A DNA stretch of 64,000 nt from Eledone cirrhosa. Lineage: Eukaryota. The notes below the pieces were generated by a model that was not told where the DNA came from, searched no databases, and saw only the letters and a program-made list of their open reading frames with translations. The stretch covers positions 47,058,001-47,122,000 of the forward strand of contig OZ024751.1 in the NCBI GenBank assembly GCA_964016885.1. Direction: 5' to 3'. Each line of letters starts with the position of its first letter. The first letter of the stretch is position 1. Shown here one piece after another: positions 3,035 to 63,388 of the stretch. The position numbers were made by a program, and so were the translations under genes.

Positions 3035-3098
<64 letters not shown>

Positions 3099-3353
3099 TA
3101 CCCAAGGAAAATTCAACTGATGTTTCCTTGGCTATGTCAAAATTTATAAAACATACTTCGTATTTTATCTGATGAAAGCGTGCCAAAGTTTTTGGTACCC
3201 CTGAAATAGATATAATAGAATAAATATGGTTTTATGAATATAGTTTCCATTTATTTAATATCATTGTATAGAAATGCCTGGGACGGTTGGAGGGTCACTG
3301 ATGAAGGACTTACTTTTTCATATGCACCACCATTTGCAACGCGCAGCCATCAT

Positions 3354-4839: not shown

Positions 4840-4875
4840 TCTTTACGTTTCAGACAGTAGTCCGTCATCAGAAGA
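4840..4875 (-). ncRNA. Minimal type I hammerhead ribozyme
   Basis: Minus strand TCTT-CTGATGA-CGGAC-TACT-GTCT-GAAAC-GTA-AAGA: intact core, stems I and II, GUA site. Confidence 0.85.
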
Positions 4876-5018: not shown

Positions 5019-5546
5019 ATAATAAAAGTATGTGTTCCTACATGTAAATAATACACATAGGGATACAAGTATAGTCCGACCGTATGCCAGTGTGGTTCAA
5101 TGGCAAGTTAATAAATTAACAAGCCAGAACATATAAAATCAAGGGAAAGCAAATAAAGAAAAAATTTTAAAATGAATTTTTAAAAATTCACTGTACTTAC
5201 TATATGTGCCTTTACCGCGGTTTCAGATCCCAAATAAATAAATAATCCAGATTACCATTGAGAAATAGATCATCGTCAGAAGGCTTTTCTGTAAAAGGAG
5301 AATATAAAATTCCCGAGTTCAAATTACAAACTGGCACCATACAAAACTACCTCAGAATGAGAGTAAATGAATGATAAAACAATGTTGTCTAGTACCGTGT
5401 GCAAAGACAGAAAGCAAGGTGGACAGGTCAATCTCTTGCTACTAAAAATAACAGCCGTTCAAATGACCAAAGGTTTCTCTACCATTGGGGAGAATAATAA
5501 TAAAAGTATGTGTTCCTACATGTAAATAATACACATAGGGATACAA
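5019..5546 (-). mobile_element. Non-coding HHR element with 50-bp terminal direct repeat (478-bp unit); retrozyme-like or non-autonomous PLE
   Basis: ATAATAAAAGTATGTGTTCCTACATGTAAATAATACACATAGGGATACAA at 5019 and 5497; internal HHR; (TA)n flank. Confidence 0.75.
5208..5284 (-). ncRNA. Type I hammerhead ribozyme with long loop II and palindromic stem III
   Basis: GCCTT-CTGACGA-TGATCT...GGATCT-GAAA-CCGCGG-TA-AAGGC. Confidence 0.85.
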
Positions 5547-5550
5547 ATAT

Positions 5551-5673
5551 ATAACGAAGAGGTGTGGTAAGGAACCAGATGGACCATAACACACCAGAGT
5601 ACTCAATAGTTAGGGTAGTAAAGAAATAGCCGTCGAAACGGCTTGAGCTCTGCCGTCGGGGTCAAACATTTTC
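5551..5673. mobile_element. Family A rearranged copy (inverted tail joined to half HHR)
   Basis: Reverse complement of the family A tail, then AGAAATAGCCGTCGAAACGGCTTGAGCTCTGCCGTCGGGGTC. Confidence 0.75.
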
Positions 5674-10431: not shown

Positions 10432-10436
<5 letters not shown>

Positions 10437-10624
10437 AACCAATAAGACCCCGACGGCTGAGCTCAAGCCGTTTCGACGGCTAATTCTGGACAAGAATTAG
10501 CCGTCGAAACGGCTTGAGCTCAGCCGTCGGGGTCTTATTGGTTCCTATTACCCACTCTACTACCCTAAGTATTGAGTACTTTGGTGCGTTATGGTCCACC
10601 TGGTTCCTTACCACATTTCCTTCG

Positions 10625-20049: not shown

Positions 20050-20054
<5 letters not shown>

Positions 20055-21702
20055 ATACTTTAGGAGGGTCATGTTGCCAATAAGAAACACACGCACCAGT
20101 TGCTTTCATTTCAATTTATTATAATAAATTTATAAATTTAGGAATTTATAAATTTCCGGTTGGTTGGTTGGTTCCACAACCAGATGTTTGTTTATATATT
20201 GTCAAAGTTCTTTCGTCACACATTCTGTGACCTCTTCAGTGACTGGGGATTCTTTTCTTTGTTTTTTTTGTGCCTCTCCTTTGTTCTGTCCTACGCCATC
20301 ATGTTTTTGTGTGTGTGTTGTGTGCTTAGTTTGCGCATGAGTTACATCCGGGTGTCTGTGTGTGTTTATATTCGTTTATTTATTTGTTTACTTACATGTT
20401 ACTGGTTGGTTGTTTGTTCTATGTGCGTGTGTGTTTTCATTTTGTCCTTAATTGTAAGTTGTGATGTTGCTGTTCCACTCATGTTTTCTATTTAATTTTG
20501 GTTGTAATTCATTTATGTTTATTGCCTCTGTGATTTGTCTAAACATTGCGTTTTTTCTGTGTGTAGATTCTATTTTTATTTCTGTTCTCTAATTTACTCT
20601 TATGTTCTATTTTAGCATGTTGGTAGAGTACAGATGATTCTTTACTATCTTGAAGGTCTCGCCAGTGTTCATTTATCTGTTCCCCTATACTACGAGCTGT
20701 CTCACCTATGTACACTATATTTTTATCTCTACATTGTCCTTCAGTACATCTTATGCTATATACTACATTTCTAGTTTTACAGTTAATATGGGGGCTTAAT
20801 TTACAGATTATACATTTCTTATCTATACAGGGAGGTCTTTGAAAAGGGTATGTCTTGCTAATAGGTGTTTTTATGGAGGTACCTGGTCTTTCTACTATCT
20901 TAATATTGAGTTTATGTTTATCTAGGGCCCTTCTAAATCTGTAAGCTAATTCACCTCTAGGGGTTGTATCGATGAACATTACACTCTGGTATTTATTGCT
21001 ATCATACCATGAGTTTATTCTATTAGCCTTATTCTTAGTTCTTTCTATTCTATTCCAAAATTTGCTCCTATACAAGGGGCAGGTCCCATTTGTGTCATTA
21101 TTTACCATTTTTTCCCATTTGGTTCTGGCTCCTCTATACACTCTGATTTTATCTCTCTGATTGTAGCCAGAGAACTGCATACGGTGGATGAAGTGTTGTA
21201 TGTGTCTCTCTAGTTCTTCGGGGTTGCACATGCGGGACACGTTTCTCATCACCCGTACCAAATCCGAAATCAGTATGTTGATTTTCGTATGGTCCGAAAC
21301 AGTTGAGATGGGTTTGGCATAATGGGAATGGAGGATTTATTTTTTGTTATTAATGGTATCTAACCAGAGCTCTGTGTCTAGTACAGGTAATCGATGGTTG
21401 GGGTGTTTGCTTGGGTAGTCTATAGTAACTCTAATACTCTGGTGGATGGAGTTAGCTATTTGCTGGATTCTTTCCATTGTGTTTTTCTCTAATTCCTGAC
21501 TGTTCTTTAGTGGGGGTGTTTTAACTACGCTGTTTATATCATCAACGTAGCGGGAGTACATTATCAGGGTTAAGGGGCCTTCTAATTGTTCTTTCAGTTT
21601 AAGTTTAAGTCTACTGTCCCACCATACCATGAATAGGTTAGCTATGTCGCCTGCAATGCTTATACCAATGGCTGCTCCCTCCTCTTGGGCATATGTTTTT
21701 CC
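20050..21702 (-). mobile_element. Penelope-like element, 5'-truncated copy 2
   Basis: YAQEEGAAIG, YSRYVDDI, LPVLDTEL and GIY-YIG (VVYSIRC...YIGETAR); closely similar to 38195-39853; frameshifts and a deletion. Confidence 0.95.
20201..20244 (-). ncRNA. Hammerhead ribozyme in the PLE pseudo-LTR (copy 2)
   Basis: GTCA-CTGAAGA-GGTCACA-GAATG-TGTGAC-GAAA-GAAC-TT-TGAC. Confidence 0.75.
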
Positions 21703-21822
21703 AAGTGAAAGCAACTGGTGCGTGTGTTTCTTATTTGCAGCTTGACCCTCCCTAAGTATAACAATATCGGTTTCAACACACGTTTTCAGATAAAGAATCT
21801 TGCTAAACAAATTCAGAAACGA
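21703..21822 (+). repeat. Inverted 3'-terminal segment of the PLE at its 5' truncation point, with an extension of about 55 nt
   Basis: GTGAAAGCAACTGGTGCGTGTGTTTCTTATT... mirrors 20050-20110; extension also seen at 22035-22090 and 30815-30870. Confidence 0.85.
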
Positions 21823-21941
21823 TATATATATATATATATATATATCATATCATATCATATAGAAATGACTTCTACGGGGTTAAAACTACGGGTTTCATTC
21901 GTTTGAAATCATCTGGAAAGTTAAGTAATTTAATCACGGTT

Positions 21942-21976
<35 letters not shown>

Positions 21977-22089
21977 ATACTTTGGGAGGGTCATGTTGCC
22001 AATAAGAAACACACGCACCCAAAGTATAACAATATCGGTTTCAACACACGATTTCAGATAAAGAATCTTGCTAAACAAATTCAGAAACG

Positions 22090-22258: not shown

Positions 22259-22331
<73 letters not shown>

Positions 22332-22397
22332 AACATATATATTTCGGCATGGAAGAGAAGTAGAAGAATTACATATATATATACATATGTGTCTCTC

Positions 22398-22579: not shown

Positions 22580-24285
<1,706 letters not shown>

Positions 24286-24288
<3 letters not shown>

Positions 24289-24646
24289 GGAAAAAATGAA
24301 ACGAAATTTCATTTCCCACTCTGAGTACGGCTGTTACTTAAATATAAGTATTTACACGTACATACATATATGTATACAGACGTACAGTAGTATGTATATA
24401 TATATACATACATGCATGCACACATATACATATGTACGTATGGATTCACCGAACATTTATTACAATGCTCGGTGTGTTTGTAAACAAACATCCCGTATTA
24501 AGCCGTAGTGTCCAGCAACTATCGTTGCTCGTTTGTTCAACACTGACAAAGGAACGCTGTACTAGTTTCAAGCTTATTAGCTATCGTCAGCAACGTATAC
24601 CTTCCTGCCAGATTGTTGAACGTATATACTTACCTTATGCATATTA
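24286..24646 (-). mobile_element. Family F HHR element (HHR at 24555-24595, minus)
   Basis: Reverse complement of a circular permutation of 24774-25250. Confidence 0.85.
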
Positions 24647-24689
24647 AAGGTAATTCTTCTACTTCTCTTCCATGCCGAAATATATATAT

Positions 24690-24771
<82 letters not shown>

Positions 24772-24773
24772 CA

Positions 24774-25250
24774 TACTACTGTACGTCTGTATACATATAT
24801 GTATGTACGTGTACATACTTATATTTAAGTAACAGCCGTACTAAGAGTGGGAAATGAAATTTCGTTTCATTTTTTCCGTTTATCGTTTTCGGTGCACCCG
24901 GCCGATTAACCCACTCGATATGCAAATTGGGCTACTCAGCCGTTAATATGCATAAAGTAAGTATATACGTTCAACAATCTGGCAGGAAGGTATACGTTGC
25001 TGACGATAGCTAATAAGCTTGAAACTAGTACAGCGTTCCTTTGTCAGTGTTGAACAAACGAGAAACGATAGTTGCTGGACACTACGGCTTAATACGGGAT
25101 GTTTGTTTACAAACACACCGAGCATTGTAATAGATGTTCGGTGAATCCATACGTACATATATATATATGTGCATGTATGTATATATATATATACATAATA
25201 CTACTGAACGTCTGTATACATATATGTATGTACGTGTACATACTTATATA
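24774..25250 (+). mobile_element. Family F HHR element, longer than one unit (unit about 425 bp)
   Basis: TACTACTG.ACGTCTGTATACATATATGTATGTACGTGTACATACTTATA at 24774 and 25199. Confidence 0.8.
24995..25035 (+). ncRNA. Type I hammerhead ribozyme with palindromic stem III
   Basis: CGTTG-CTGACGA-TAGCT-AATA-AGCTT-GAAA-CTAG-TA-CAGCG. Confidence 0.85.
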
Positions 25251-25258
25251 TATATATT

Positions 25259-25339
<81 letters not shown>

Positions 25340-30929: not shown

Positions 30930-31361
30930 AAAGAATAGAGGTGTAACACACAAGTTATTATATATTGGTAAACGGAATAGAAAATGCTGACAAATTGTTC
31001 ACAGTTGAAAAATGGTTTAATTAGGAATAAAAGAGTATTAGTGATTGTATGGGTTAGTATTCAGTTGTGGTTTTAAGTTTTTAAGTTTTTACCGGTTGCG
31101 CATTTCTAAATGCTTTTCAAAAATAATTTTGAGATAGAGTGTCCGTGCTGTTTGCTCTGATCTGAGCAAACAGCACGGACACTCTATCTCAAAATTATTT
31201 TTGAAAAGCATTTAGAAATGCGCAACCGGTAAAAACTTAAAAACTTAAAACCACAACTGAATACTAACCCATACAATCACTAATACTCTTTTATTCCTAA
31301 TTAAACCATTTTTCAACTGTGAACAATTTGTCAGCATTTTCTATTCCGTTTACCAATATAT
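30926..31361. mobile_element. Family E long fold-back palindrome (arms about 198 bp, 6-nt loop at 31158-31163)
   Basis: Arms appear perfectly complementary; variant HHR at 31198-31235; relatives at 52912-53262 and 53840-54185. Confidence 0.85.
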
Positions 31362-33422: not shown

Positions 33423-34289
33423 TTATGTATATCTATATAATTTTAATTTTAATTTTTTAATTTTTTAATTTTTTATTTTTCCAATGACACCCTCTAAAGC
33501 TATTTTTGTAAACGTAGATCAATAACCATTAACTGATTTTAGGAAAATGTATCCTATTCAAGACGATGTTTAAACACTCATATTTCTTTCGACTAAATAA
33601 TTAATTACTCTCACACTAACGATTAACAAATAAAATCGGAGTTATGTTTCCTTTTTCAATCATATAAACTTATTATACATAACTCCGTTAATTTAATTTA
33701 AAACATTCTCAATGCCGAACAAGTTATCCAAATATATAAATTCATAATTTTAACTACCTATTTATTTACATAAAATACAAAATCATCTTCCCTCGTAACT
33801 CATATTAAGAACAACCACCTAAAACTTGAACTACTTATTTATTTATTTATTTATTTATCTACATAAAACACAAAATCAACTCCCTCGTAACTCATATTAT
33901 AAACAACTAATAATTGCAAATTATCTTTTTAATAAAAATACATATGCTATTATTAAAATATATATAGATATTTATATATTTAACCCACTACAATATTATA
34001 AGATAAATACTTACAAACATAATTCTCCTTATAAATATATACATAATATAGGTAAATATTCGAATTTATTTCCCCCAAAATTAACGTATATAAGTGGTCT
34101 TCTTTTTCCTTTTTCCTTTTCCTTTTTCTTCTTTTTCCTTTTTTCTTTTTCTTTCTTTCTCTCTTATTATTATATATCTCAACTTTCCATAGCGTTTAAA
34201 ATAACGGTTTTTCAATCATATAACTCAACCTTATTTACATATTCATTTGCATATTCATCCATAAGTTTGAAATATCCGTTCTTTAATCT

Positions 34290-34463
34290 CACTACCCAAG
34301 GAAAATTCAACTGATAAGGTATGGTTTCCTTGGCTATGTCAAAATTTATAAAACATTCTTTGTATTTTATCTGATAAAAGCGTACCAAAGTTTTTGGTAC
34401 CCTTGAAATATATATAATAGAATAAATATGCTTTTATAAATATAGTTTCCATTTATTTAATAT

Positions 34464-34468
<5 letters not shown>
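34290..34468 (+). mobile_element. Family B copy (HHR at 34363-34424, core mutated to CTGATAA)
   Basis: Near-identical to 3098-3268. Confidence 0.8.
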
Positions 34469-36702: not shown

Positions 36703-36834
36703 CTATATATATGTATTAGCAAGTGGAAAGACCAACGGAAACATTGTTCCCTCGGTCCGATTTGACGAAAGTCGATCGTTAAAAAAAAAATATATATATA
36801 CATATATACATATATATATATATGTATATATATA

Positions 36835-37061
36835 TTTTTTTTTTAACGATCGACTTTCGTCAAATCGGACCGAGGGAACAATGTTTCCGTTGGTCTTTCC
36901 ACTTGCTAATACTATCTATCGGTCGCAACTCCAGGTAGAAGGAGCAACGTGAAATAAAGTGTCTTGCTCAAGGACATAACGCATCACCTGGTCCAGGAAT
37001 CGAACTCACAACCTAACGCTTGTGAATCCAATTCCTTAACCACTCAGCCACACGCCTTCAC
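36835..37061 (-). mobile_element. Full-length tRNA-derived SINE with A-tail
   Basis: A box TGGCTGAGTGG, B box GAGTTCGATTCC, A10 tail; its 3' 78 bp are mirrored at 36713-36790. Confidence 0.9.
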
Positions 37062-37080
37062 AGATAGTTGTTTATATATT

Positions 37081-37124
37081 GTCATAGTTCTTTCGTCACA
37101 CACTCTGTGACCTCTTCAGTGACT
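37081..37124 (-). ncRNA. Hammerhead ribozyme in the inverted pseudo-LTR
   Basis: Reverse complement of 39659-39702. Confidence 0.85.
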
Positions 37125-37559
37125 GGGGATTCCTTCCTTTGTTTCTGTGCCTCTCCTTTGTTCTGTCCTACGCCATTTTGTTTCTGTGTGTGTGTTGTGT
37201 GCTCAGTCTGCGCATGCGCCACATCCGGGTGTCTGTGTGTGTTTATGTTCATTTATTTATTTGTTTATTTACATGTTACTGGTTGGTTGTTTGTTCTATG
37301 TGTGTGTGTGTTTTCATTTTGTCCTTAATTGTAAGTTGTGATGTTGTTGTTCCACTCATATTTTCTATTTAATTTTGGTTGTAATTCTTTTATGTTTATT
37401 GCCTCTGTAATTTGTCTAAACATTGCGTCTTTTCTGTGTGTAGATTCTATTTTTATTTCTATGTTCTCAAATTTACCCTTGTGTTCTATTTTTAGCATGT
37501 TGGTAGAGTACAGATGATTCTTTACTATCTTGAAGGTCTCGCCAGTGTTCATTTATCAT

Positions 37560-39469
37560 TATGGAACAATGACGTGCCGGCGTTGTATGGGCTTCGAAAA
37601 GACCATAAAATGGGCAGTGACCCTGTCGCGGGACCACCAACACGGCCAGTCTGTGGAGCTAACATTGCTAGTAACTACAGACTGTCCTACTTCCTCTCCC
37701 TGATCATACGCCCCATCATCGAAATGTCCCTAGATGTATGTGACAACACGGAGGACCTCCTCGGCAGAATCGGCGTGAGTAACCGATCTAGGGACCTAAC
37801 AAACTGCATAATAGGTAGTATGGATGTTGTGTCCCTGTATCCATCTATTGACGTGGATTTTTCTGTGGAGAAATGCGTAGAAATGATCAGTGAGAGCAAT
37901 GTTGTGTTCCGTGGGATTGATACCAGTGAGCTGGGACTCCTACTTAAACTTACCTATAGTAATAATTACCTAGACACACATGACCTTAGCAACCTGTGCC
38001 CTACAAGACCAGCAAGAGGCAGACCACCTACCATTACCTCAATGGCCAAGAAAACCCACACAGATAGATGGAACGGGTGGACCAGAGCCATACGGACACC
38101 CGAAAACCACGATGAACTGAAGAAAATGATTGCACATGCGGTAGGGGCCAGCATAAAACTAACCCTTAAGGAACATATGTTTAAATTTAATGGAAAAACA
38201 TATGCCCAAGAGGAAGGAGCAGCCATTGGTGTTAGCATTGCAGGCGACATAGCTAACTTATTCATGGTATGGTGGGACAGTAGACTTAAACTGAAGCTTA
38301 AAGAAAATTAGAAGACCCCTTAACCCTGATAATGTACTCCCGCTACGTTGATGATATAAACATCGTAGTTAAGACACCCCCACTAGAGAACAGTCAGGAA
38401 CTAGAGAAAAACACAATGGAAAGCATCCAGCAAATAGCTAACTCCATCCACCAGAGCATTAGAGTTACTATAGACTACCCAAGTAAACACCCCAACCATC
38501 GATTACCTGTACTAGACACAGAGCTCTGGTTAGATACCATTAATAACAAAAAACAAATCCTCCATTCCCATTATGCCAAACCCATGACTTCCAAACATCT
38601 GATCCACCGAAACTCGGCCGTTTCGGACCATACCAAAATCAACATACTGATTGCGGATTTGGTACGGGTGATGAGAAACGTGTCCCGCATGTGCAACCCC
38701 GAAGAACTAGAGAGACACATTCAACATTTCATCCACCGTATGCAGTTCTCTGGCTACAATCAGAGAGATAAAATCAGAGTGTATAGAGGAGCCAGAACCA
38801 AATGGGAAAAAATGGTAAATAATGACATAAATGGGACCTGCCCCTTGTATAGGAGCAAATTTTGGAATAGAATAGAAAGAACTAGGAACAAGGCTAATAG
38901 AATAAACTCATGGTATGATAGCAATAAATACCAGAGTGTAATGTTCATCGATACAACCCCTAGAGGTGAATTAGCTTACAAATTTAGAAGGGCCCTAAAT
39001 AAACATAAACTCAATATTAAGATAGTAGAAAGACCAGGTACCTCCGTAAAAACACTTATTAGCAAGACATACCCTTTTCAAAGACCCTCATGTATAGATA
39101 AGAAATGTATAACCTGTAAAATAAGACCCCATATTAATTGTAAAACTAGAAATGTAGTGTATAGCATAAGATGTACTGAAGGACAATGTAGAGACAAAAA
39201 TATAGTGTACATAGGTGAGACAGCTCGTAGTGTAGGGGAACGGATAAATGAACACTGGCGAGACCTTCAAGATAGTAAAGAATCATCTGTACTCTACCAA
39301 CATGCTAAAATAGAACACAAGGGTAAATTACATAGAAATAAAAATAAAATCTACACACAGAAAAGACGCAATGTTTAGACAAATTACAGAGGCAATAAAC
39401 ATAAAAGAATTACAACCAAAATTAAATAGAAAATATGAGTGGAACAGCAACATCACAACTTACAATTAA
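37560..39469 (+). pseudogene. PLE reverse transcriptase-GIY-YIG endonuclease ORF (frameshifted near 38306 and 39330)
   Basis: PALYGLRKDHK..PPTRPV, SMDVVSLYPSI, QEEGAAIG, RYVDD, LPVLD, CIDKKCITC, VVYSIRC..YIGETAR..R..EH; C-terminus RQITEAINI..LNRKYE in a shifted frame. Confidence 0.95.
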
Positions 39470-39658
39470 GGACAAAATGAAAACACACACACACATAGCA
39501 CAAACAACCAACCAGTAACATGTAAATAAACAAATAAATAAATGAACATAAACACACACAGACACCCGGATGTGGCGCATGCGCAGACTGGGCACACAGA
39601 AACAAAATGGCGTAGGACAGAACAAAGGAGAGGCACAGAAACAAAGAAAGGAATCCCC

Positions 39659-39703
39659 AGTCACTGAAGAGGTCACAGAGTGTGTGACGAAAGAACTATG
39701 ACT
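39659..39703 (+). ncRNA. Type I hammerhead ribozyme in the PLE 3' pseudo-LTR
   Basis: AGTCA-CTGAAGA-G-GTCACA-GAGTG-TGTGAC-GAAA-GAAC-TA-TGACT; predicted cut after 39698. Confidence 0.9.
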
Positions 39704-39854
39704 ATATATAAACAACTATCTGGTTGTGGAACCAACCAACCAGAAATTTATAAATTTGTAAATTTATTATAAATTTATTATAATAATAAATTGAAGTGAA
39801 AGCAACTGGTGCGTGTGTTTCTTATTGGCAACATGACCTTCCCAAAATATAACA

Positions 39855-39899
<45 letters not shown>

Positions 39900-40041: not shown

Positions 40042-40084
40042 TAGTGTGTTCTGTTATTACACAAATATGACCCTCCCCAAGTAT

Positions 40085-40129
<45 letters not shown>

Positions 40130-40365: not shown

Positions 40366-40861
40366 TATGCATACATGCATTAACCATTCCATTCAAGGAC
40401 CACACGTTTTTGTTTGTTTTTGTTATTATTATTTAGTTTTTTGCTAGTTTATTTTTTAATTTATTTATATTTAAATATCTTCTGTAAATGTTTTTACCTC
40501 CCATCTTCCGTTGGTGGTTCTTCTAATTATTTCTTAATTACTTATTTCTTAATTATTACTTATTTTTTAATTACTTGTTTCATTTAATTACTTCTATATT
40601 GTAGATTAAGCTAAAAGAAAAAGTAACGGTGAGGTGGGGTTCTTCAGTTCCTCATTTAATATCCCACCATCTCTAACCTCAACCTTAATCCACTATACGT
40701 AGCCCTAATCCTAACCTCAACCTTAATCCACTATACGTAGCCCTAACCTCAATCCACTATACGTAGCCCTAGCCCTAACCCTAACCCTAATCCACCGTCC
40801 GTAGCCCTTGTAACAAATAAAACGTATTTATTGTTATCATTGCTTTGAGATATTCATTGCA

Positions 40862-41760
40862 GTTCTGAGTTCAAATCCCACCGAGGTTAGATTTGCCTTT
40901 CATCTTTACAGGATCAATAAAATAAAGTATCAGTAATGCACTGGGTCGATTTAATCGACTTTCCCCTTCCATTCAAATTACTGGCCTTGTGCTAAATTAT
41001 TATTAATCTTTTCTGATATTTATAGCAGTTCTTTACGTTTTGAGTTCAAATCCTGCCGGGGTTAACTTTGCCTTTAACCATTGCATATTCAATAAAATAA
41101 AGTACCAGTCACGCACTGGGTCGATTTAATCGACTTTCCCCTTCCATTCAAATTACTGGCCTTGTGCCAAAAAATAGAAACAGTTATTATTAATCCTTTG
41201 AGATATTTATAGCAGTTCTTTACGGTCTGAGTTCAAATCCCGCCGAGGTTAGCTTTGGCTTTCATCCTTACAGGGTTGGTAAAAGAAAGTACCAGTAATG
41301 CACTGGAGTCAATTTAATTGACTTTTCCCTCCACAAAAATTCTTGGCCTTGAGTCTAGAAACCATCTGCGTTTATAGGGGAGTGGATTGACAGTATCGGT
41401 AGAGCGTCGGACAACGTGCTTTGGGGGCATAGAGTTACGACCCTTTACGGTCTGAGTTCAAATCCCGCCGAAGTTAGCTTTACCTTTCATCCTTACGGGG
41501 TCGATAAAATAAAGTACCAGTAATACACTAGGGGTCGATAAAATAAAGTACCAGTAATACACTAGGGGTCGATAAAATAAAGTACCAGTAATGCACTGAG
41601 GTCGATTTATTGCAGCCCTTTACTGTCTGAGTTCAAATCCCGCCGAGGTTAGCTTTGCCTTTCATCCTTACGGGGTCGATAAAATAAATTGTTAGCGATT
41701 TAATCGACTTTCCCCTCCCCCAAAATTGTTAGCCTTGTGCCTAAATCAGTAACAATTATT
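40862..41760 (+). repeat. Tandem cluster of five SINE copies or fragments
   Basis: TGAGTTCAAATCC at about 40866, 41041, 41228, 41453 and 41627; internal triplication of about 32 bp at 41495-41600. Confidence 0.85.
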
Positions 41761-42188
41761 ATTGTTAATGTTGCAGTTGTTATTGCTGCAATTGTTGTTG
41801 TTGCTGTTGTTGCTGTCGTTGCTGTTGTCTTCGTTGTTATTCAAGGTTAATTCAAGGTTTATTCAAGGCAACTCTTGTGTTTTGCGTGTAATGATAAAAA
41901 CACATGCTTGGTGAAACATTAATTTCAAATTTATTTCTTGTTCGTATTCATGAGTGAGAGTGAGGGGGAGAGGATTAAGGTGAGGTAGAGGTGGAGTAGA
42001 GGTGGAGTAGAGGCGTGGTCCCTGGCAGATTTACATTTTAATTTAATCAATCGTTACGGTTATATATTTTATAGCTTTCTATATACACACCTCTTCGGCT
42101 TTTCTTTCCATTTTCGATTTGGTAAAAATTACATTCGAATATCTTTTTTATATAGACCCCAAAAAACAATGAAAAATATGTGTGTATA

Positions 42189-44588: not shown

Positions 44589-45033
44589 TATCTCTGTATC
44601 ACATGTTTGGCCTCCTTCAGGTCATCTTTGTACCACATGTTTAGCCTCCTTCAGGTCATCTCTGTATCACATGTTTGGCCTCCTTCAGGTCATCTTTGTA
44701 CCACATGTTTAGCCTCCTTCAGGTCATCTCTGTACCGCATGTTTGGCATCCTTCTGTCCATCTCTGTACCGCATGTTTGGCCTCCTTCAGGTCATCTTTG
44801 TACCACATGTTTGGCATCCTTCTGTCCATCTCTGTACCGCATGTTTGGCCTCCTTCAGGTCATCTTTGTACCACATGTTTAGCCTCCTTCAGGTCATGTC
44901 TCTACCGCATGTTTGGCCTTCTTCATGTCATCTGTGTACCGCATGTTTGGCCTCCTTCAGGTCATCTGTGTACCACATGTTTAGCCTCCTTCAGGTCATC
45001 TCTGTACCACATGTTTGGCCTCCTTCATGTCAT
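44589..45033. repeat. 34-bp minisatellite, about 13 copies
   Basis: CATCTCTGTACCACATGTTTGGCCTCCTTCAGGT, no spacers. Confidence 0.9.
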
Positions 45034-45380
45034 TTTTATTAACGATATAAATTTTTTTTTTTCAAAAGCCATTGCTAGGAAGCAGTTTTAATGGTCTCCC
45101 TCAAAGTATGATCCGCCAATTTCAATGCACTTGCTGTAGTACCCCAGCCACTTCTGGAAAGGCCCAAAGCGAAGGTGTCCTAGGCGCTTGTCACCACAAC
45201 CTCCCTCATCCCCCCCCCCACACACACCATCAAAGCGGATACCACTGAGGTTCTCTTTCATAATTTATGGTAACGACTTTTGTAAGGATAAAAGACAAAA
45301 TTCTCATCTAATGGAAGTATGGGATTCGAACTCATAACCTATAACAAATAGACCCTTGGTTGTCGATATCTGGCCATATT

Positions 45381-50029: not shown

Positions 50030-50490
50030 AGACTGGTCTTTATTTATCAACCTCAAAAGAATGAAATGCAGAGTTGAACTCGGTGGGATTTGAACTCAGA
50101 ACCCACAGAGAGCCAATCAAATATGGTGGCCTTTGATCAGGCGATTTAAAGATTATGTCTTTGGTGGGATTTGATCTCAGAATACAGAGAGCCAGATCAA
50201 ATATGGTGGCATTTGATCAGACGTTTTAACAACTATGACCTCGATGTGATTTGATCTCAGAATCCAGCGAGCCAGAACAAATATGGTGACCTTTGATCAA
50301 ACGATTTAAAGACTATGTTCTTGGTGGGATTTGAACTCTGAACCCAGAGAGCCAGAACAAATATGGTAGCCTTTGATCATACGCTCTGTCGATTATGACC
50401 TCGGTTGGATTTGAACTCAGAACCTGGAGAGAGCCAGATCAAATATAGTGGCCTTTGATCAGACGTTTTAACGACTATACCAATTCGCCG
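50030..50490 (-). repeat. SINE with five tandem 80-bp amplifications of its head
   Basis: GATTTGA(A/T)CTC at about 50088, 50168, 50248, 50328 and 50408. Confidence 0.85.
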
Positions 50491-51699: not shown

Positions 51700-52046
<347 letters not shown>

Positions 52047-52193: not shown

Positions 52194-52469
52194 AACATAG
52201 AACTATCTCAAATAACTCTCAGAATTGACCAAAGAGAAGATTGCAATAAAGTACTTTAAATTAAAGAAACCTTAAAAGCCTCACCCCAGGGGTAAACTTC
52301 TTCTCAAGCGGCCTACATATACAGGGTTTAACAAATTGCTCCACTTACTGCAGTTTCACAACCGTAACACAATTTGCACTGAAATCACAAGGACTTCAAA
52401 AGGTCAACTGGTGAGAAGGGACTGCTCTGTTTTGTCCGTTTGCCGTTGTCTTCGGAAATATATATATAT

Positions 52470-52625
52470 ACAATGATATTAAATATATGGAAACTATATT
52501 TATAAAACCATATTTATTCTATTATATATATTTCAAGCGTACCAAAATTTTGGTACCCTTGAAATATATATAATAGAATAAATATGGTTTTATAAATATA
52601 GTTTCCATTTATTTAATATCATTGT
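52470..52625. mobile_element. Family B fold-back copy centred on HHR stem II
   Basis: TTTC-AAGCGTACCAAAATTTTGGTACCCTT-GAAA. Confidence 0.85.
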
Positions 52626-52747
52626 TTATTATACTTTAGAAAACATGTCGAGTGCTCTGAATCAGTTATACACATTTATATTTGTTGAATTACCAACAAA
52701 TTGAATATCCCTTCTGCTTATATACACACACACACACACATATATAT

Positions 52748-52911: not shown

Positions 52912-53262
52912 TAGTAAAAAGGAAAAGAAAATGCTGACAAATTTTTCCCAGTGAAAAATAGTTTAATTAGGAATAAGTATAAATTAGTAATAAGTATTAG
53001 TTAGTATTCAGTTTTAGTTTTAAGTGTTTACCGGTTGCTTTTCAAAAATAATTCACTCTGTCTCAAAATTATTTTTGAAAAGCATTAGAAATGCGCAACC
53101 GGTAAAAACTTAAAACTAAAACTGAATACCAACTAATACTTATTACTAGCTATACTTATTCCTAATTAAACTATTTTTCACTGGGAAAAATTTGTCAGCA
53201 TTTTCTTTTCCTTTTTATTTATATATTTATTTATCACAACTCGTGTGTCACACCTCTATTTT
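52912..53262. mobile_element. Family E fold-back copy
   Basis: Arms flank about 53055; variant core TTGAAAA...GCAACCGGTA at about 53072-53108. Confidence 0.8.
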
Positions 53263-53347: not shown

Positions 53348-53456
53348 TGTATATATACACATAGTATAGTGAGAAACGAACACATCTGTTCGTTTTTGTT
53401 TTGAACCGTTAGTACAGGCATCTTTATTTTAAATGTATATATATATATATATATAT

Positions 53457-53745
53457 AAGCTTGAAACTAGTACAGTGTTCCTTTGTCAGTGTTGAACAAA
53501 CGAGCAACGATGGTTGCTGGACTCTACGGCTTAATACGGGATGTTTGTTTACAAACACACCGAGCATTGTAATAGATGTTCGGTGAATCCATACGTACAT
53601 ATATATATGTGTGCATGTATGTATGTATATATATATACATACTACTGTACGTTTGTATACATATATGTATGTACGTGTACATACATTTATAACTAAGTAA
53701 CAGCCGTACTAAGAGTGGGGAATGAAATTTCGTTTCATTTTTTCC

Positions 53746-53749
<4 letters not shown>
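53457..53749 (+). mobile_element. Family F copy starting inside HHR stem II
   Basis: Begins AAGCTTGAAACTAGTACAG and reads through the unit junction into the 24774-24880 sequence. Confidence 0.85.
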
Positions 53750-53802
<53 letters not shown>

Positions 53803-55267: not shown

Positions 55268-55462
55268 ATAGGAACGAGTAGGACCCCGACGGCTGAGCTC
55301 AAGCCGTTTCGACGGCTAATTCTGGACTAAAGAATTAGCCGACGAAACGGCTTGAGCTCAGCCGTCGGGGTCCTACTCGTTCCTATTACCCACTCTACTA
55401 CCCTAAGTATTGAGTACTTTGGTGCGTTATGGTCCACCTGGTTCCTTACCACATTTCCTTCG

Positions 55463-57589: not shown

Positions 57590-58046
57590 GCAAAAGTTCT
57601 ATTTAAATTGTTGGGATACAACAAGTAAATATTTTTATAACTGATATAAAGCACTCGACAAGTATTTGGAGTAGATATACGATATTAATAAATGGAAACT
57701 ATATTTATAAAACCATATTTATTTCATTATACATATTTCAAGGATACCAAGTTAAATTATGGTATGCCTTCATCAGACAAAATACAATATATATCAGTTT
57801 TACAAATAAGCATTGTAATTGTCCTTAACACTAAGACTTACTAATATAATATAAACAAACCACTATCCTGATGTCCTCCAAAAGTAATGGTCGCATTTTG
57901 AAAGGGTACGTCAATGCTTATTTGTAAAACTGATATATATTGTATTTTGTCTGATGAAGGCATACCATAATTTAACTTGGTATCCTTGAAATATGTATAA
58001 TGAAATAAATATGGTTTTATAAATATAGTTTCCATTTATTAATATC

Positions 58047-58050
<4 letters not shown>
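57590..58050. mobile_element. Family B element with inverted duplication of about 140 bp; HHRs at 57720-57784 (minus) and 57943-58007 (plus)
   Basis: TATTTTGT-CTGATGA-AGGCATACCA...TGGTATCCTT-GAAA-TATGTA-TA-ATGAAATA; arms 57675-57815 and 57912-58052. Confidence 0.85.
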
Positions 58051-62339: not shown

Positions 62340-63388
62340 CACACGAGTTTTGTTTTGTTTGATGGAAAAGTTGGACCATTCAAGCTTCAGGACTAAAAGA
62401 CAGTTTTAGCTTTGTCGAGGCCCTTTTTTCACATCATATCTTAGATTAACTGAACTGGTTTCTACCGTGAGTCCTCAATAAGCTTTGGTGTCTCTGTTAA
62501 TGAAGGAGTTGGACCAATCAGGTTTCAGAGTTGGGCCATAACAGGTTTCAGAGTTGGGCCTTAACAGGTTTCAGAGTTGGGCCATAACAGGTTTCAGAGT
62601 TGGGCCATAACAGGTTTCAGAGTTGGGCCATAACAGGTTTCAGAGTTGGGCCATAACAGGTTTCAGAGTTGGGCTATAACAGGTTTCAGAGTTGGGCTAT
62701 AACAGGTTTCAGAGTTGGGCCATAACAGGTTTCAGAGTTGGGCCAATCAGGTTTCAGAGTTGGGCCATAACAGGTTTCAGAGTTGGGCCATAACAGGTTT
62801 CAGAGTTGGGCCATAACAGGTTTCAGAGTTGGGCTATAACAGGTTTGAGAGTTGGGCCATAACAGGTTTCAGAGTTGGGCCATAACAGGTTTCAGAGTTG
62901 GACCATAACAGGTTTCAGAGTTGGGCCATAACAGGTTTCAGAGTTGGGCCATAACAGTTTCAGAGTTGGGCCATAACAGGTTTCAGAGTTGGACCATAAC
63001 AGGTTTCAGAGTTGGGCCATAACAGGTTTCAGAGTTGGGCCATAACAGGTTTCAGAGTTGGGCCATAACAGGTTTCAGAGTTGGACCATAACAGGTTTCA
63101 GAGTTGGGCCATAACAGGTTTCAGAGTTGGGCCATAACAGGTTTCAGAGTTGGGCTATAACAGGTTTCAGAGTTGGGCTATAACAGGTTTCAGAGTTGGG
63201 CTATAACAGGTTTCAGAGTTGGGCTATAACAGGTTTCAGACTCTGAATGAAAACTGCAGCTTTGCCGTGTCTCTTTTCCACACCTGTTCTCGAGATTCAA
63301 CCTTCAGTAATGAGACAGCCCAGGTATGTAAAGGTGTCAACCGTCACCAGGGTTTGGCCCTCCAGTTGGTCCTCACCAGTTCCTGGGT
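62340..63388 (-). pseudogene. LINE RT fragment hosting a minisatellite
   Basis: QLEGQTLVTVDTFTYLGCLIT...RHGKAAVFIQSLKP [array] WSNSFINRDTK. Confidence 0.65.
62506..63240. repeat. 23-bp minisatellite, about 32 copies
   Basis: CAGGTTTCAGAGTTGGGCCATAA, head to tail, no spacers. Confidence 0.95.

Follow-up and report, generated by a model that had tools for sequence, protein, structure and literature searches.

Within the 64-kb stretch of Eledone cirrhosa DNA analysed here (the window), three copies of a 425-nt repeat without coding capacity are set in TA microsatellites. This repeat, family F, includes a hammerhead ribozyme (HHR) motif, and the locus raises the question from which kind of RNA, and by which machinery, such copies are made. 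As the best explanation we propose, with a probability of about 0.55, that F is a non-LTR retrozyme copied in trans by the RT-endonuclease of a Penelope-like element (PLE) from a predicted RNA circle. The broader statement that F is a non-autonomous PLE-type element, with a circle and a linear multimer taken jointly as the template, is highly probable.

The sequence TACTACTG was found at 24774 and again at 25199, which gives a period of 425 nt. Copies were aligned against a doubled monomer (E <= 7e-133; best 40 of 147 rows). Copy B covered positions 1-479 of the doubled monomer, copy A positions 167-535 with 96.5% identity, and copy C positions 240-535 with 95.0% identity. The other matches, among those listed, were pieces of these copies or matches of 73-79% to TA/TG sequence. 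C is nested in A and both terminate at the same base, so that there are two distinct 3' ends among the three copies. An earlier note on this DNA had described three circular permutations of one unit. All three copies could indeed be placed on one closed 425-nt map, whereas permutation applies to B only, A and C being nested with a common 3' end; within the window it is B alone that closes the map. As had been noticed, the segment ending TTCCGTTT precedes the HHR in B and follows it in A and C. Its new start after the HHR in B was also found, but for 54 nt only. The TA/TG microsatellite-like stretch ascribed to the unit is present as well. The 5' end of B is blurred by (TA)n and its true start may be further to the left. 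All 3' ends are within (TA)n, where a target-site duplication is not readable; a duplication of more than 4 bp, when present, is a retrozyme trait. The GC content of the unit is 37%, and on neither strand was there an ATG-started ORF of more than 71 codons (longest 52 codons on the plus and 71 on the minus strand). The coordinates of the features are collected in Table 1.

Table 1. Features of family F and of the coding PLE-type elements, in positions of the window.
Feature	Position	Strand	Remarks
Copy A	24283..24650	-	0.87 unit; complete HHR; 3' end passes into (TA)n
Copy B	24774..25252	+	1.13 units; inverted relative to A
Copy C	53455..53751	+	0.70 unit; 5' start within HHR loop II; 3' end as in A
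Terminal direct repeat of B, 54 nt	24774-24827 = 25199-25252	+	96% identity
Read-through segment closing the map	24884..24939	+	single occurrence in window; common in run X1
Internal TA/TG stretch	25142..25198 (about), continues into 24774-24824	+	predicted pairing with 24788-24824
59-nt tail-like stretch that separates the family's two recurring 3' ends	24825..24883	+	contains predicted hairpin
Type I hammerhead motif, B	24994..25036	+	stem I 6 bp; CUGACGA 25000-25006; U.U + 3-bp stem II; GAAA 25021-25024; ACUAGU 25024-25029
Type I hammerhead motif, A	24554..24596	-	same sequence as motif in B
(TA)n at 3' end of A	24252..24285		
Spacer of ~40 nt, unrelated, joined to 5' end of A	24650..24692		second copy, inverted, at 22330-22387
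(TA)n separating spacer from B	24693..24773		conceals true 5' end of B
(TA)n past 3' end of B	25262..25327		
(TA)n flanking copy C, both sides	53436-53457 and 53749-53798		
Broken coding PLE-type element, not in family F	37061..39855	+	RT + GIY-YIG-like motifs; inverted 5' terminal repeat; own HHR; 3' end in (TA)n
Second copy of coding PLE-type element	20050-21849	-	91% identity between the two copies

A and B are inverted to each other with their 3' ends pointing outward. They have in common an allele at 25070, which is absent from C and makes up less than 1% of the depth in X1, a public sequencing run that may be the window's own source. The shared allele and the inverted, 3'-outward layout suggest that A and B are one compound insertion, or that conversion took place later. 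Two neighbouring insertions are possible too, since 12 of 369 nt differ between A and B, with the 40-nt spacer and (TA)n lying between them. Short local duplications were observed beside A and near TA runs, one inverted (22330-22387 / 24636-24692, 58 nt) and one direct (23661-23719 / 24193-24252, 60 nt).

The HHR core CTGACGA begins at 25000 (+) and 24590 (-), and the motif has the arrangement CUGANGA ... GAAA ... UH in three helices with helix I open. The palindromic ACUAGU stem III and the GUA at 25028-25030 were found as first described, and cleavage is predicted after 25030. Stem I, previously given as 5 bp, has 6 bp (24994-24999 with 25031-25036, one G.U) and is followed by a distal 4-bp stem. 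The base of hammerhead helix II is usually the pair G10.1-C11.1 in core numbering; in F it is U25007.U25020. The reading of an intact HHR with canonical core therefore holds for the core in A and B and has to be qualified at the base of stem II and in C, which starts inside loop II without CUGACGA and lacks the first half, so that the HHR is complete in two of the three copies. The axolotl retrozyme HHR_Amex2 has the same basal U.U in stem II; it cleaves, and does so better as a dimer (PMC7229834). A descriptor of the HHR gave seven motifs in the window and no match in any of 30 locally shuffled windows. With Rfam, a full-length match to HH9 (19.7 bits, E 0.0057, below the gathering score of 52) was obtained only on a scan of 101 bases. 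There was no hammerhead row among the 19 matches of a 721-base scan, nor among the best 150 of 440 rows for the window. Rfam matches to miRNAs, all below gathering, were rejected as artefacts of TA/TG hairpins.

In the monomer, stem III amounts to one pair, and the predicted catalytic fold has about -3.9 kcal/mol vs -16.6 kcal/mol for the best local fold. The pairing of two palindromes is predicted at -4.8 kcal/mol, and hammerheads with such a short palindromic stem III are described to act as dimers (PMC4209133). None of the copies (at most 1.13 units) is a locus with two HHRs on one strand. Judged from their sequence, the copies in the window are products, none of which would be able to release a monomer alone, since none carries two ribozymes on one strand. 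The earlier proposal of a retrozyme candidate agrees with published retrozymes in the size class of the unit, its GC content and self-pairing, the type I HHR and the absence of an ORF; a tandem HHR pair was not seen at these loci.

The circular fold of the unit was predicted at -130.4 kcal/mol with 70% of the bases paired (z -7.2; 0/60 shuffles). When the TA stretch was left out z was -4.3, and the opposite (minus) strand came close to this (z -4.0). In the predicted circle, stems I and II of the HHR remain largely free of other pairing, an arrangement described for the predicted circles of metazoan retrozymes (PMC7229834).

A search of public sequencing runs listed 24 runs, none of them an RNA run carrying the unit, and the contigs of four of them (X1, X4, X5 and X23) were mapped on the monomer. 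In X1, 11,928 contigs fell on the unit. The summed depth, which is not a copy number, was 0.65-2.5 million from 24774 to 25133, the TA/TG stretch being left out. Set against the depth of 11-77 of the listed contigs, this summed depth suggests tens of thousands of F copies in X1, which roughly matches three copies per 64 kb. The bin with the read-through junction of B had a summed depth of 0.89 million. This junction was bridged by three of the eight listed X1 contigs with at least 31 letters on each side; they differ from B by 16, 11 and 9 letters and are therefore not B itself. A fourth listed contig was one letter short of bridging. One X4 contig bridged the junction and another was collinear with 111 replaced letters, and there was no bridge among the contigs listed for X5. 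Two of the six listed loose ends in X1 ran into (AT)n: the one behind 24824 (42 contigs) corresponds to the end of B, and the one behind 24883 (60 contigs) to the end of A and C. The remaining four read as diverged subfamily sequence. The head-to-tail junction is common in X1; among the listed contigs none spanned the whole unit, so that tandem arrays may be present without showing up in them. Exact-pattern scans for longer F copies gave no loci in metagenome contigs and none in viral contigs. The run search also returned 13 rows from 10 coded organisms with 0.27-0.81 of 37 words of the unit. A spread of F across species is not claimed from this. These words may possibly come from trace or contaminant DNA, since X4 had just three contigs (depth 3.6-31) with next to none in a second run of the same sample, and X23 had three poor reads, none of them covering the HHR.

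For the analysis of variation, 28 of 33 variant rows were used in the selection tests and five rows below 5% in X1 were left out. None of the listed variants fell on the 12 core bases, and in the core region N7 and one loop II base vary. This conservation of the core was not significant (0 of 27 variant places in the 12 core places, P = 0.38). In the stem I pair 24997/25033, which is U.G in the window, 35% of the X1 depth had A or G at 24997 and 52% had U at 25033; in X5 the two positions varied in 85% and 87% of the depth (both unphased). Both sides of the predicted pair 24850/24911 vary as well, in 65% and 42% of the X1 depth (unphased). Taken overall, variants broke predicted pairs in 12 of 28 cases against a random mean of 12.5, which gives no support for the pairs.

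From the predicted cleavage site it is 219 nt to one of the two 3' ends and 278 nt to the other, both of them downstream. A cut linear monomer would give copies of at most 219 or 278 nt, and yet the site lies inside each of A, B and C, and B has more than a full unit. The layout of the copies thus supports a circle or an uncut multimer as template. A circular or tandem template had been put forward earlier, and it agrees with these features as well as with the X1 contigs that bridge the junction. The permuted ends alone are no proof of a circle, since such ends are also expected when a PLE copies a linear multi-copy transcript (PMC11167929).

In the mechanism that we propose for the retrozyme, tandem master loci elsewhere would be transcribed, and two hammerheads would pair via the ACUAGU palindrome and cut at GUA to give 425-nt monomers. 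A host ligase would circularise these monomers. The PLE protein would then nick (TA)n and prime cDNA at one of two fixed positions, which follow the cleavage site at a distance of 219 and 278 nt. Copying would run backward through the ribozyme junction, an early stop giving C and A, and the passing of its own start giving B. The insertions have several features of the PLE type, namely two adjacent 3' ends 59 nt apart, a partial tandem, an inverted neighbour and a microsatellite target. According to PMC11167929, only PLEs start copying at two internal sites lying side by side, so that a tail may or may not be present; their protein nicks DNA rich in A and T and extends each of its strands. Further PLE traits on record are a bias to (TA)n, tandems of incomplete units and a neighbour that is inverted and 5'-truncated (PMC8557442).

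The window itself contains coding PLE sequence at 37496-39378 (+) and 20539-21849 (-), with the ORF broken. It was found to have a YVDD motif, a CX4CxxC linker before the GIY-YIG-like motif, and VYIGET. Its terminal repeat carries a small HHR of its own (39664 (+), 37119 (-) and 20239 (-)). The closest named relative of the ORF is an Octopus vulgaris protein, with 64% identity over 86% of the C-terminal piece and 75% over 247 aa of the N-terminal piece. Pfam gave no match on the PLE pieces of the window; three of five relatives of these pieces had a sub-threshold RVT_1 match and one had GIY-YIG. On the basis of motifs and relatives, the window holds autonomous-type PLEs in broken form. Short 3'-end PLE fragments were observed at 21703-21764, about 21970-22020 and about 40065-40090. 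The terminal repeat and HHR of this PLE are unlike F, so that it is not the parent of F and at most an example of a helper. A helper PLE with sequence in common with F was not found in the window.

When compared with known systems, F agrees in many respects with the metazoan non-LTR retrozymes described in PMC7229834. These, too, have a non-coding unit of a few hundred nt (about 150-450 bp) with a GC content below 50%, one type I HHR each, a strongly self-paired predicted circle with the HHR free, a high copy number, and PLEs in the same genome. Their units are 220-245 nt in coral, 350-390 nt in mussel and 330/350 nt in axolotl, and the 425 nt of F is above the 170-400 nt of published circles and within the 150-450 bp of the repeats. 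F differs from them in its dispersed copies of 0.7-1.13 units in (TA)n instead of arrays, in the TA/TG stretch and in the two fixed 3' ends; its circle and cleavage are predictions. In the preprint that treats retrozymes as non-autonomous PLE derivatives (bioRxiv 10.64898/2026.07.22.740005), the elements resemble F by a co-occurring coding PLE, dispersed monomers and a size range of 51-972 bp. There, 'active' means two consecutive HHR units, which the F locus does not have, and the link to PLEs is pLTR (pseudo-LTR) homology, which was not found between F and the PLE of the window; the link in F is the anatomy of its insertions. With the EN+ PLEs Poseidon PAc (PMC11167929) and Neptune/Naiad (PMC8557442), F shares the tail with two internal 3' ends, the partial tandem, the inverted neighbour, the AT-rich or (TA)n target, and the type I HHR with palindromic helix III. 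In contrast to these PLEs it has no ORF (an RT + GIY-YIG ORF between terminal repeats is absent from the unit), and its HHR is canonical in size and not minimal. The tail of F is 59 nt vs 30-40 nt published for PLEs (PMC11167929). Between its 3' ends and the target there is an overlap of TAT or TATAT (3-5 nt), whereas an Anolis PLE primes without homology (PMC11167929).

The strongest rival of the circle, which we consider rather unlikely, is that F is a mini-PLE, non-autonomous, whose templates would be linear head-to-tail transcripts that are not cut. No circle would be formed, and the HHR would be inherited from the terminal repeat of a parent and be little used, or used later. This explanation accounts for all genomic features equally well and fits the weak predicted fold of the monomer ribozyme with its single stem III pair. 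For PAc, the one PLE tested in vitro, priming within multi-copy RNA is reported, as is normal insertion of its HHR mutants; HHR cleavage was not needed, and the main template was uncut RNA (PMC11167929). Similarly, eight of nine retrozyme dimers from Xenopus were not cleaved (bioRxiv 10.64898/2026.07.22.740005), and together with the dispensable cleavage in PAc this counts against the circle. A mini-PLE copied in this way agrees less well with the fold of the unit, which is far better than that of shuffles even without the TA stretch and is like that of retrozyme circles. The same holds for HHR helices of canonical size and for the circles reported from similar repeats in coral, mussel and axolotl (PMC7229834).

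It is improbable that F is a mere pLTR of a coding PLE outside the window, with A and C as 5'-truncated 3' ends and B as a secondary tandem. The common 3' end and different 5' ends of A and C would resemble truncated retrocopies, and published retrozymes are described as derived from pLTRs (bioRxiv 10.64898/2026.07.22.740005). In two X5 contigs, 24882 is preceded by about 140 letters that do not belong to the unit, and the 30 of them that were listed include a possible stop codon. The agreement of these contigs is only 0.72, and the last letters of their loose end match, as reverse complement, the 8 letters that come next in the unit, as in a fold-back; the sequence may belong to a coding parent or be a fold-back. 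Against a pLTR, read-through from the 3' end to the sequence upstream of the HHR reached 0.85-1.15 million summed depth vs a peak of 2.5 million. The same read-through was present in diverged contigs, record 10 of X4 shows it in a collinear, likewise diverged form, and the share running on into unlike sequence was 0 in X1. Nor does F resemble the terminal repeats of the coding PLE found in the window, and F as the pLTR of that PLE was rejected, as six of six comparisons were no better than shuffles. A local DNA duplication or slippage between TA-rich stretches, with the circular map being accidental to one locus, would fit the TA-rich repeated 54 nt inside a microsatellite and the closing segment that occurs once in the window, but it is very improbable and largely refuted by the junction in contigs 9-16 letters off B and by the recurrence of B's 3' end in 42 contigs.

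Non-LTR retrozymes of metazoans are already known (PMC7229834), and it has been argued that they arose from the terminal repeats of PLEs (bioRxiv 10.64898/2026.07.22.740005); by its sequence F likely adds a candidate family. In the literature searched, which covered few of the subscription journals, no report of a cephalopod retrozyme was found, and the main text of a 2026 repeat annotation of O. vulgaris (PMC13282606) mentions no ribozyme or retrozyme. F would add HHR elements to the octopus repeat landscape and would otherwise be an ordinary selfish element. Mobilisation of animal retrozymes by PLEs has so far been proposed from co-occurrence and pLTR homology. F adds to this that its dispersed copies end in the manner of PLE insertions, and the proposed route of mobilisation thereby becomes easy to test. 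Since the copies number in the thousands, share two fixed 3' ends and sit in a plain (TA)n target, counts of copy ends in a single assembly can address the question of circle vs multimer. A more far-reaching reading can be advanced tentatively, in which the many dispersed copies are traces of an RNA circle having been copied by target priming of the PLE type, with two fixed priming sites, passage through the ligated ribozyme junction and an overshoot of ~54 nt, and F is likely the first cephalopod retrozyme. If true, it would be direct genomic evidence for the hypothetical mobilisation of retrozyme circles by PLEs, in trans and by structure, not by sequence. An unrelated HHR element at 5019-5551 overshoots alike, and the coding PLE of the window shares no terminal sequence with either.

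This element (5019-5551, minus strand) is built like B. Its unit of 478 nt has a single type I HHR, located at 5279 and again with a palindromic stem III; the terminal direct repeat measures 55 nt (98% identity), and the 3' end lies in (TA)n. Its overshoot of ~55 nt nearly equals the 54 nt of B.

Several other repeats and HHR motifs were observed in the window, in which microsatellites abound. Another AT-rich HHR family is present at 1828-2096, 3097-3270, 34286-34468, 52461-52707 and 57590-58047, twice as inverted pairs, with motifs at 1997 (+), 57776 (-) and 57951 (+). A minimal HHR-like motif at 4871 (-) has an ACGU palindrome instead of stem III. When F was compared with the other repeat and HHR families of the window, one of 14 comparisons gave p about 0.01 (a slice of the spacer fragment, overlapping the 5' end of A), and the rest were not below 0.07. 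Near-perfect fold-backs of several families were found at 30966-31355, 36705-36919, 52915-53217, 10435-10545, 55270-55384, 51884-52001 and 1580-1702, a pattern expected from inverted PLE-type insertions. Tandem minisatellites with periods of about 34, 81 and 69 nt, together with a degenerate larger unit, are located at 44590-45037, 50075-50478, 62506-63240 and 40830-41763.
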